This document shows positions 1 to 1,091 of a stretch of DNA of 1,091 nt, piece after piece. The stretch lies in the sequence record J05393.1. One strand, written 5' to 3'. Origin of the DNA: a phage. The translations under genes were made by a program, and so were the position numbers. Position 1 is the stretch's first letter. Every line of letters begins with the position of its first letter. The notes under the pieces are model-generated. The model searched no databases. It was not told the DNA's origin and worked only from the letters and a program-made list of their open reading frames with translations.

Positions 1-1
1 A

Positions 2-103
2 AAAGGGAAGTTTCTCAAAAAGGTCCGGGAGCGTGGCGGCTTCTCTGCCGTCGCATACGGATTCGGGCAATTCAAGATCGCAATTTACGAAATGATGAAA
101 TAG
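2..103 (+). CDS. 3' end of an upstream protein-coding gene (C-terminal fragment, truncated by window edge); product unknown
   Basis: Frame starting at nt 2 reads without stops to TAG at 101-103 (...KGKFLKKVRERGGFSAVAYGFGQFKIAIYEMMK*). Its codons (GGC, TTC, GCC, GTC, TAC, ATC) look enterobacterial. The other two + frames are also open at the edge: frame 1 runs to TAA 166-168 but uses several rare codons (AGG, CGG x3, ATA x2, CGA x2); frame 3 stops at TGA 93-95. Frame choice is therefore tentative. Confidence 0.4.
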   Translation, partial: KGKFLKKVRERGGFSAVAYGFGQFKIAIYEMMK

Positions 104-109
104 CACTTT

Positions 110-126
110 TTGTTAAAACTGCCGGG
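110..126 (+). repeat. copy 1 of an imperfect 17-bp direct repeat (TTGTTAAAACTGCCGGG)
   Basis: Matches 1073-1089 (TTGCTAAAACTACCCGG) at 14 of 17 positions, with an identical TAAAACT core. Lies 6 nt after the upstream TAG stop. Confidence 0.25.
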
Positions 127-160
127 ATGGAATCTGGCATTATTATCTCACCAAAACGAG

Positions 161-170: not shown

Positions 171-824
171 ATGAAAGACTTTAATGATATCGAAACTATC
201 GACTTTGCAGAAACTGGTTGCTCATTCACTCGCGAAGCAATAGCATCAGGCGGTTATTATCAGGCATTGAAAACGCCAACCTGTAAAGAGATTTCAGGGC
301 GTCGATACAAGGGGACAAATACCCCTGACGCTGTTCGTGATTTATGGTCAACTCCGCGAGAGGTTATTGCATACCTTGAGGGTCGTTATGGGAAATATGA
401 TCTCGACGCTGCGGCAAGCGAAGAAAATAAAGTTTGCGAGAAGTTTTACTCTCAGGAAACAAACTGCTTAAAACGTTGGTGGGGAAAGAATAAGCACGTT
501 TGGTTAAATCCTCCTTATAGCCGACCTGATATATTTGTCAACTCTACTGCGTGGTTTACTGAAGCGCGGCAGAACGCAGCTGAAATAATCTGGATTGAAG
601 CGGACTTGACTGAGGATATTGACGGCAATGAATACGCACGATCCGGTCGCCTGGCTTTCATATCCGGTGAAACTGGAAAGGCCGTAGACGGTAATAACAA
701 AGGTTCGGTAATTTTTATTATGCGCGAACTTAAAGAAGGTGAGGTGCAACAGACTCACTACATCCCAATCACAAGCATTTGCCCTTCGGTGAAAAACAAA
801 CGAGCAAAGGTGAGGAAAGTATGA
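171..824 (+). CDS. DNA N6-adenine methyltransferase, phage Dam-like family (orphan; no partner endonuclease in window)
   Basis: 217-aa ORF with a good SD. It contains WSTP (aa 59-62, nt 345-356), DLDAAAS (aa 77-83, nt 399-419) and VWLNPPYS with the NPPY catalytic tetrapeptide (aa 113-116, nt 507-518). The order and spacing (W-TP ... LD-AAS ... N ... W ... NPPY) match what I recall of phage-encoded Dam-like N6-adenine methyltransferases. Stop TGA at 822-824. Confidence 0.85.
   Translation: MKDFNDIETIDFAETGCSFTREAIASGGYYQALKTPTCKEISGRRYKGTNTPDAVRDLWSTPREVIAYLEGRYGKYDLDAAASEENKVCEKFYSQETNCLKRWWGKNKHVWLNPPYSRPDIFVNSTAWFTEARQNAAEIIWIEADLTEDIDGNEYARSGRLAFISGETGKAVDGNNKGSVIFIMRELKEGEVQQTHYIPITSICPSVKNKRAKVRKV
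809..815 (+). promoter_or_regulatory. Shine-Dalgarno for the downstream small ORF, embedded in the 3' end of the methyltransferase gene
   Basis: aaGGTGAGGaaagtATG: a GGTGAGG purine-rich block ending 5 nt before the ATG at 821. Confidence 0.6.
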
Positions 825-1072
825 TGAGCGAAAAAATGGTTCCTGTTAAATTAACTGAGCAAGGTTTATGGCTACTTTATCGAGCTACGTGCTGCGAAAT
901 TATGGAGCGAAACGGATTGACTCAGGATGTTATTGGTTGCGATCTGTGGGAGTTCACTAGTTCTCTTGATATGCTTTTCGATGAGATAAAAAATGAATAC
1001 ATAGAGAACTGGCCTTCAATCATACAGAAAGACGTGGAAGAACTTAAAGCTGATACAATCGTACAGCACTAA
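821..1072 (+). CDS. hypothetical small acidic protein (83 aa), translationally coupled to the methyltransferase gene
   Basis: ATG at 821-823 overlaps the methyltransferase stop TGA (822-824) as ATGA, with a second ATG at 824-826. The track ORF 779-1072 is the same frame but its first codon is TTG with no SD, so 821 is preferred. Product MMSEKMVPVKLTEQGLWLLYRATCCEIMERNGLTQDVIGCDLWEFTSSLDMLFDEIKNEYIENWPSIIQKDVEELKADTIVQH; by my count 16 D/E versus 7 K/R (net about -9). Stop TAA at 1070-1072. I recognise no family motif. Confidence 0.7.
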   Translation: MMSEKMVPVKLTEQGLWLLYRATCCEIMERNGLTQDVIGCDLWEFTSSLDMLFDEIKNEYIENWPSIIQKDVEELKADTIVQH

Positions 1073-1089
1073 TTGCTAAAACTACCCGG
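1073..1089 (+). repeat. copy 2 of the imperfect 17-bp direct repeat (TTGCTAAAACTACCCGG)
   Basis: Begins immediately after the TAA stop of the small ORF (1070-1072); 14/17 identity to 110-126. Confidence 0.25.
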
Positions 1090-1091
1090 CG

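Follow-up and report, generated by a model that had tools for sequence, protein, structure and literature searches.

ORF19 and the closest described systems

T7 gp5.9 and lambda Gam are small helical inhibitors of RecBCD that come from the replication/recombination module. Lambda Ral and Rac Lar, also small phage proteins, alleviate restriction by modulating a methyltransferase, and Ral acts on host EcoKI. T7 Ocr, ArdA and T4 Arn are DNA-mimic anti-restriction proteins of phages or plasmids and are small, acidic and early-expressed. We compared these systems with ORF19 of coliphage T1, an open reading frame (ORF) of 83 amino acids (aa) that directly follows the DNA methyltransferase gene dam in sequence record J05393.1, a stretch of 1,091 nucleotides (nt) referred to below as the window. 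A first-pass annotation of the window, made by a model from the letters alone, had described this ORF as a small acidic protein without a recognised motif, and had suggested that it could be an anti-defence protein, perhaps a DNA mimic, or a partner or regulator of the methyltransferase.

ORF19 resembles Ocr, ArdA and Arn in being small, acidic and early-expressed, and it also lies among restriction- or modification-related genes. However, it showed no sequence or structural similarity to these proteins, its charge density is much lower, its predicted compact bundle has no DNA-like charge array, and the phages that carry it stay sensitive to restriction (PMC8594841). ORF19 is likewise similar to gp5.9 and Gam in being small, acidic and, by prediction, helical, with its gene lying between replication genes and an exonuclease gene, and by analogy a role against a host nuclease would fit this gene position. 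However, no fold match joined ORF19 to either protein, and its hypervariable alleles would be unexpected for a conserved target of the RecBCD kind. Ral and Lar share with ORF19 their small size and a conceptual tie to DNA methylation and restriction escape, but have no detectable similarity to it, and the target of Ral is host EcoKI, not phage Dam. The AAA+ lid (alpha-subdomain; Lon alpha-domain, PDB 1qzm and 4git) showed a resemblance of fold only, with 7-16% identity, whereas ORF19 has no attached ATPase domain and Foldseek found nothing.

Across phages, the ORF19 family recurrently adjoins three unrelated kinds of DNA-modification gene, which supports the link to DNA modification drawn in the first-pass annotation. 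Our preferred reading, held tentatively and short of probable, is that ORF19 would be a stoichiometric binder of a target that varies between host strains, such as part of a defence system, a nuclease of the host or one of its repair factors.

ORF19 is a genuine gene co-expressed with dam

The 1091 bases of the window matched the genome of coliphage T1 (Tunavirus T1, Drexlerviridae) with 99.6% identity (AY216660, NC_005833 and MK213796, positions 38856-40004). The ORF at 821-1072 corresponds to T1 ORF19, or 'potential protein HP 83' (AAA87391, YP_003926, AAP49980; coding sequence CPTT1_060), annotated as 'hypothetical protein', and the protein encoded in the window differed from that of T1 at residue 52 only (L52 versus S52). 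ORF19 is an already catalogued T1 gene, and the bare finding of it is not new. The protein matched PHROG 2676 (E 3.3e-29, residues 6-82 on profile positions 1-76 of 78), a family labelled 'unknown function', and no characterised relative was found in Pfam, NCBIfam and PDB searches, so the earlier description of a real but unassigned ORF was upheld. The features of the window are as follows.

821..1072, plus strand: T1 ORF19 ('HP 83'), 83 aa including the first Met, stop TAA 1070-1072 (ORF list, translation and T1 alignment)
171..824, plus strand: T1 dam (ORF20), N6-adenine methyltransferase of family PF05869 (Pfam Dam match in two stretches, E 1.7e-54; T1 alignment)
809..816, plus strand: Shine-Dalgarno-like sequence GGTGAGGA within the 3' end of dam, core GAGG 812-815 (sequence; ribosome-binding site annotated in AY216660)
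821..826, plus strand: ATGATG stop/start overlap, with dam stop TGA 822-824 and ORF19 start at ATG 821 or ATG 824 (sequence)
967..987, plus strand: family signature LDMSFEE (residues 49-55), present in the window as LDMLFDE (alignments and column statistics)
1..103, plus strand: 3' end of the VRR-NUC Holliday-junction-resolvase-like gene (T1 ORF21), stop TAG 101-103 (T1 annotation via alignment)
120..149, plus strand: terminator-like hairpin (120-139) and T-rich tail upstream of dam (scan; rho-independent terminator in NC_005833)
1083..1091, plus strand: 5' arm TACCCGGCG of a terminator-like hairpin after ORF19, the remainder lying past the end of the window (T1 scan; NC_005833 annotation)

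The start codon (ATG 821-823), stop codon and length of the ORF were as first described, and so was its acidic composition, with 16 Asp and Glu residues, 7 Lys and Arg residues and an isoelectric point (pI) of 4.3. The three Trp residues (17, 43 and 64) and three Cys residues (24, 25 and 40) were also present; only Cys25 was widely kept (72% of 64 homologues), so that there is no conserved metal site; the earlier description had noted no zinc-finger spacing of the cysteines. The reported ATGA overlap was found where ATG-821 overlaps the dam stop, and the Shine-Dalgarno (SD) core precedes ATG-821 by 5 nt and ATG-824 by 8 nt. The second ATG (824-826) overlaps the dam stop by 1 nt (TGATG) and gives a product of 82 aa instead of 83. 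The choice of start differs by record, with ATG-824 used in AY216660 (re-annotated T1) and ATG-821 in NC_005833, and the ATGATG sequence was present at the dam/ORF19 junction in all five Tunavirus genomes checked. Since the start of ORF19 overlaps the dam stop and its SD lies inside dam, the two genes share an mRNA and their translation is coupled.

Besides the window, we read the nucleotide sequence of the junction in 12 diverse Drexlerviridae loci. The gap between dam and the ORF19 homologue was -4 to +4 nt, and GGAG was found within the 3' end of dam before every homologue start. With this arrangement at 13 of 13 junctions, the co-expression with dam that had been proposed earlier is almost certain. 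Further Dam-adjacent loci had similarly tight gaps by annotated or called coordinates. Coupling alone is unremarkable, because tight or overlapping junctions are frequent in T1 (about 7 of about 17 same-strand junctions in a 13-kb region), and it is evidence of co-expression, not of shared function. Terminator-like hairpins flank the pair both in the window and at the T1 locus (L001 6118-6137 and 7141-7160), so that dam and ORF19 form a discrete two-gene unit between them. No convincing sigma-70 promoter was found between the upstream hairpin and dam.

ORF19 homologues were found in 274 phage records by tblastn, and an exhaustive profile search of 1.84 billion (1.84e9) representative proteins returned 58 matches or clusters, to which a Webervirus group of 78-aa homologues is added. 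These 58 were standalone proteins of 62-88 aa, apart from a few fragments or mis-called ORFs and one protein of 833 aa (P0169), which was rejected as a spurious match to a DsbA-like repeat protein. The family is thus narrow and confined to phages. The ratio of nonsynonymous to synonymous substitution rates (dN/dS) of ORF19 was 0.16-0.28 (Nei-Gojobori, five Tunavirus genomes), showing purifying selection in the ORF19 frame, and was about 10 times that of dam in Tunavirus. Competing ORFs on both strands of the window were of 33 aa or less, and neither strand matched an RNA family in Rfam. ORF19 is a genuine protein-coding gene.

The ORF19 family keeps a fixed slot beside DNA-modification genes

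The order seen in the window (VRR-NUC 3' end, dam, ORF19) was also the order in the 12 diverse Drexlerviridae loci. A homologue directly follows dam in Tunavirinae, Tempevirinae, Nouzillyvirus, Eclunavirus, Kyungwonvirus, Vilniusvirus and Webervirus, and the general order in Drexlerviridae is helicase, VRR-NUC, in some cases a small ORF, Dam, the ORF19 homologue, small ORFs, an SbcD-like exonuclease and the lysis genes. The neighbourhood check proposed in the first-pass annotation was largely positive, with a PF05869 Dam gene within one gene of the homologue in about 31 of about 37 loci.

Outside Drexlerviridae, distant homologues were detected in Dibbivirus, Murrayvirus, Skarprettervirus and Kosakonia phage Kc166B (PHROG 2676, E 1.5e-21 to 1e-9). 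The order in these phages was Dam, phrog_3007 ('RusA-like resolvase/beta-clamp-like'), the ORF19 homologue and a second methyltransferase-like gene, phrog_757. In each case the last 11-17 nt of the homologue also form the beginning of the gene that follows. This is phrog_757 in Dibbivirus and Murrayvirus, whereas in Skarprettervirus and Kc166B a small ORF intervenes and is the one overlapped. The phrog_757 gene is annotated as a C5-cytosine methyltransferase (Dcm) and carries the motifs (D/E)CT and ENP, with FDGSG in the PSKM copy only; it had no Pfam match at E 0.01.

A third kind of modification gene was found in one metagenomic phage (L033/L034; ERZ27235406 k119_2727), where the homologue lies between a primase gene and a VUT/YhhQ-like gene. 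The VUT/YhhQ-like gene and a gene for a DpdA-like queuine tRNA-ribosyltransferase directly follow the homologue (L033 3034-4274) and form a 7-deazaguanine DNA-modification module, which occupies the slot held by the C5-methyltransferase-like gene in Murrayvirus. The L033 homologue had no tblastn match in the GenBank phage collection. At least four phage lineages have the family at a constant place in their DNA-metabolism module.

Some observations concern the neighbouring genes themselves. The motifs of phrog_757 resemble motifs I, IV and VI of C5-methyltransferases (L021 3236-3979, L022 3212-3952, L023 3191-3943, L024 3463-4191), and this gene may represent a divergent methyltransferase family; its homologue in phage vB_EcoS_MM01 (L040 26699-27322, minus strand) is annotated as a hypothetical protein only. 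The phrog_3007 product (about 190 aa; Dibbivirus, Murrayvirus and Skarprettervirus) is labelled inconsistently as a RusA-like resolvase, a DNA polymerase III beta subunit or a member of the beta-clamp superfamily, and the gene (L016 4427-4993, L020 160-744, L021 2427-2993, L024 2401-2985) had no Pfam match.

ORF19 alleles vary independently of their neighbours

The mean pairwise identity over 13 loci was 40% for the ORF19 homologue, 71% for Dam and 62% for VRR-NUC. The identity of ORF19 was correlated neither with that of Dam (Spearman 0.15, p 0.19) nor with that of VRR-NUC (Spearman 0.08).

The Salmonella Tlsvirus phages YSP2 and UTK0007 were 95-100% identical over 5.2 kb, and their VRR-NUC and Dam proteins were 96% and 98% identical, respectively. 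However, their ORF19 homologue proteins were only 30% identical. Nucleotide identity dropped to 32-49% exactly across the ORF19 homologue and was 99% right after it (L004 2449-2724 versus L013), showing that one allele has replaced another with the exchange limited precisely to this gene. Identity also fell, less deeply, to 74% near L004 3424-3524, within the exonuclease gene.

Exchange of this type was also seen at the resolvase gene. P818 and vB_EcoM_50EP (L010 versus L014) had Dam proteins of 98% identity and VRR-NUC proteins of 52% identity, so that the resolvase gene is exchanged as a cassette too.

The predicted fold is a compact helical bundle without a characterised relative

An AlphaFold2 (AF2) model of ORF19, built from a 64-sequence alignment, had a mean predicted local distance difference test (pLDDT) score of 91.4 and a predicted template modelling (pTM) score of 0.79. 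The model places helices at residues 13-30, 35-38, 42-46, 50-56 and 61-82, and predicts with high confidence that the product, about 80 residues long, folds as a compact bundle made up of helices alone. Column statistics over the 64 homologues showed a conserved hydrophobic core (W17, L19, F/Y20, L28, W43, L49, M51, F53, I61, W64, I68 and L72) and a conserved polar set (R21, D50, S52, E54, E55, D71 and E74), with all other surface positions highly variable. The same statistics showed no catalytic motif and no conserved Cys/His cluster. The window version retains L49, D50, M51, F53 and W64 and carries Leu in place of Ser52.

The net charge of ORF19 is -9 over 83 aa, and the family has a median of -8 with a range of -15 to +1. 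A pI below 5 was calculated for 91% of family members, and a few have little or no net charge (P0140, P0159 and P0163 among them).

Searches for a known relative returned little. A Pfam scan to E 1 with the query and 13 homologues gave a chance Sod_Fe_C match alone (E 0.12), and sequence and profile searches of Pfam, NCBIfam and PDB, with the single protein and with family alignments, gave nothing informative. Foldseek against PDB found no meaningful fold match (best E 1.8), and a BFVD search returned solely the family's own uncharacterised members. A helix-turn-helix, the trait of restriction-modification controller C proteins, was found neither by Pfam nor as a significant fold match, and ORF19 is acidic (pI 4.3). 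No similarity to Ocr or ArdA was seen in the Pfam, PDB profile and fold searches, and no known anti-defence protein matched the family in the Pfam, PDB, fold and BFVD searches.

Two candidate identities were considered and rejected. Gp54 of Bas11, a CapRel trigger from Drexlerviridae, is a 66-aa beta-barrel (PMC11578894), and AdfA (anti-DarT) belongs to T4-like phages. ORF19 is unmentioned in a survey of phage escape mutants (10.1101/2022.08.27.505566), in which the Drexlerviridae trigger is a different protein of 128 aa. The HIDEN-SEQ, KanT1 and TLS papers held no data on ORF19, and a search of the literature on T1 gene essentiality gave nothing relevant to it.

ORF19 homologues and Dam do not always occur together

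The Rogunavirinae phage vB_EcoS_MM01 (MM01) keeps the slot, with the order helicase, VRR-NUC, a 64-aa ORF and the ORF19 homologue. Its complete genome had no dam (tblastn best E 8.8), and its sole methyltransferase-like gene is the phrog_757 homologue, 8 kb away on the other strand. In locus L018 the homologue directly follows VRR-NUC with an 11-nt overlap and no methyltransferase gene is in view. An adjacent Dam gene was absent from both L018 and L033. T1-like Dam was also found in 271 Vibrio phage records, and these records gave no tblastn match to ORF19. One of them, Vibrio phage K201, was inspected, and the ORFs flanking its dam did not match the ORF19 family profile.

An apparent natural fusion of Dam and ORF19 (P0141; L015, a 292-bp contig of GCA_054590155.1) was set aside as Rosetta-stone evidence. 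The C-terminus of Dam reads in frame into the ORF19 homologue in this contig; Klebsiella phage relatives have a 1-nt indel and two separate genes, and their similarity to L015 stops exactly at the start of ORF19. A frameshift or a mistake in assembly probably accounts for the fusion. As judged from sequence comparison, ORF19 is probably not a subunit of Dam.

A T1 mutant from which dam was deleted (CC20) has a burst about 40% smaller, even when the host is dam+ (PMC10470545). Because the SD and start of ORF19 lie inside the 3' end of dam, this loss could be partly a polar effect on ORF19, a point absent from PMC10470545.

Possible functions of ORF19

In the reading we prefer, ORF19 would act stoichiometrically as a binding protein and not as an enzyme. 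Its target would differ between host strains, and the conserved acidic patch would dock onto a basic part of the target surface, probably one that binds nucleic acid. Candidate targets would be a component of an anti-phage defence system, or a host repair or nuclease factor whose substrate is phage DNA that is modified or is undergoing replication or recombination, and ORF19 would be deployed early, alongside the phage enzymes of DNA modification and recombination. The fast, cassette-like evolution of the gene is consistent with a variable target, given the mean identity of 40%, the YSP2/UTK0007 replacement and a dN/dS about 10 times that of dam. A generic anti-defence role would be plausible. 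Several points weigh against a strain-variable host target. No homology ties the family to any defence system or host target, the selection acting on Tunavirus ORF19 is purifying and not positive, and some members of the family are charge-neutral. Near-universal presence at a fixed position would sooner be expected of a gene in a core module than of an accessory gene directed against defence. Mosaicism at the level of single genes is widespread in Drexlerviridae, and cassette exchange is not specific to ORF19, because VRR-NUC also swaps alleles. Most Drexlerviridae are highly sensitive to restriction, and their methyltransferases show no simple link to restriction resistance (PMC8594841). Any protection given by ORF19 would not be against classical restriction-modification, because of this sensitivity. 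A bolder version of the proposal, which we think rather unlikely, is that ORF19 founds a new family of phage counter-defence proteins travelling with Dam, C5-methyltransferase-like and DpdA-like genes. Such proteins would disarm a host system that varies between strains and that either senses phage DNA in a modified, replicating or recombining state or attacks it. Examples would be a nuclease dependent on modification, or a sensor that sets off abortive infection in response to phage methyltransferases. The divergent, recombining alleles of the family would track the host variants.

The chief competing explanation, a real but minority possibility, is that ORF19 is an accessory adaptor or regulator for a resolvase (VRR-NUC or phrog_3007), for the helicase or for the SbcD-like exonuclease, so that its nearness to dam would be incidental and its slot a matter of inherited synteny. 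The homologue always lies in the helicase/primase/resolvase/exonuclease block, and its near-universal presence at one slot is the behaviour of a core gene. It follows VRR-NUC where dam is absent, directly in L018 and after one small ORF in MM01, and stands directly after phrog_3007 in Dibbivirus, Murrayvirus and Skarprettervirus. A weak resemblance of fold to the AAA+ lid domains of replication proteins such as ORC5, Pol epsilon subunit B and TnsC points in the same direction. However, a tight conserved interface within the phage is hard to reconcile with alleles that differ by 70% beside an unchanged VRR-NUC (96%) and Dam (98%), the identities of ORF19 and VRR-NUC are not correlated, and the two types of resolvase that precede the homologues are unrelated. 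The suggestion of the first-pass annotation that ORF19 is a partner or regulator of the methyltransferase was not supported, and we regard as improbable the wider form in which it is a partner, regulator or modulator of specificity or activity for Dam, the C5-like methyltransferase and DpdA, made in a fixed ratio by translational coupling. It gains from the recurrent tight adjacency to three unrelated modification genes, from the roughly 31 of 37 loci with Dam within one gene, and from the burst loss of the T1 dam deletion (PMC10470545), if this is partly polar. Against it stand the 30%-identical alleles behind 98%-identical Dam proteins and the lack of co-variation with Dam, the presence of the gene in MM01 (without dam) and in L018, the 271 Vibrio phage Dam records without an ORF19 match, the poor fit of the K201 flanking ORFs, and the unlikelihood that one protein would adapt to three unrelated enzyme folds. 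A DNA mimic of the Ocr/ArdA/Arn type, which would imitate B-DNA and so block restriction enzymes of type I or type IV, was also disfavoured and seems to us very improbable. The small size and low pI of ORF19 and its expression with early DNA-metabolism genes fit such a role, its location among modification genes fits an anti-restriction module, and the conserved D50, E54, E55, D71 and E74 could form a patch. However, no sequence or fold similarity to such mimics was found, the net charge of -9 is modest for 83 aa and not universal, bona fide family members (P0140, P0159 and P0163) being neutral or weakly charged, and the model predicts a compact bundle without an extended array of charges. That ORF19 is non-functional, a chance or decaying ORF downstream of dam, is effectively refuted. 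The Leu of the window at a Ser conserved in 98% of homologues and the lack of a functional annotation anywhere would agree with decay, but the protein is conserved in at least four phage lineages with dN/dS below 0.3, its AF2 fold is confident, and its SD and start are conserved.

Relevance of the ORF19 family

Drexlerviridae (T1-like phages) are among the commonest coliphages and Klebsiella phages and serve as models and therapy candidates, and about half of their small genes have no assigned function. ORF19 stands at one fixed slot in essentially all Drexlerviridae and at least three other lineages, co-translated with DNA-modification enzymes. The papers searched did not report the occurrence of the family beyond Drexlerviridae, its recurrent coupling to three kinds of modification gene, the sharply bounded allele cassette, or a confidently predicted fold without a characterised relative. 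ORF19 would be a reasonable candidate, well defined and cheap to study, for a new family that interferes with the host or counters its defences, and its function could explain differences in restriction or defence sensitivity among Drexlerviridae. If it is instead a replication or recombination accessory, the interest would be mainly for specialists.

Differences between the window and T1, and observations on other records

Differences from T1 were noted at three places in the window. A CT/TC swap at 974-975 (ORF19 codon 52) changes Ser52 to Leu inside the LDMSFEE signature. Ser52 was present in 98% of the 64 homologues and in each of the five natural copies from Tunavirus; the change looks like a sequencing transposition or a damaging mutation. 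The dam gene has a 60-bp in-frame deletion between 539 and 540 relative to T1 and all relatives, which gives 217 aa instead of 237 and removes 20 residues (KKAIEQMEHNNQIDMLLPAD) just past the NPPY catalytic motif; either the allele is a defective one or the source record is wrong here. At positions 1-17 the window and T1 show several mismatches and differ in length by 2 bases (AAAAGGGAAGTTTCTCA in the window, AAAGGGAATTTCTCC in T1). These differences are typical of read-end errors, and could also be real mutations.

The dam gene of phage JMPW2 (L032 169-882) is annotated as two coding sequences and has an internal stop, upstream of an intact ORF19, and looks like a pseudogene or a sequencing error. 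Some host labels look doubtful. The module, one of enterobacterial phages, was present with high similarity to coliphages in 19 'Campylobacter phage' records, in 'Pseudomonas phage Motto' and in 'Xanthomonas phage DIBBI', and their labels possibly reflect contaminant or mis-assigned phages.

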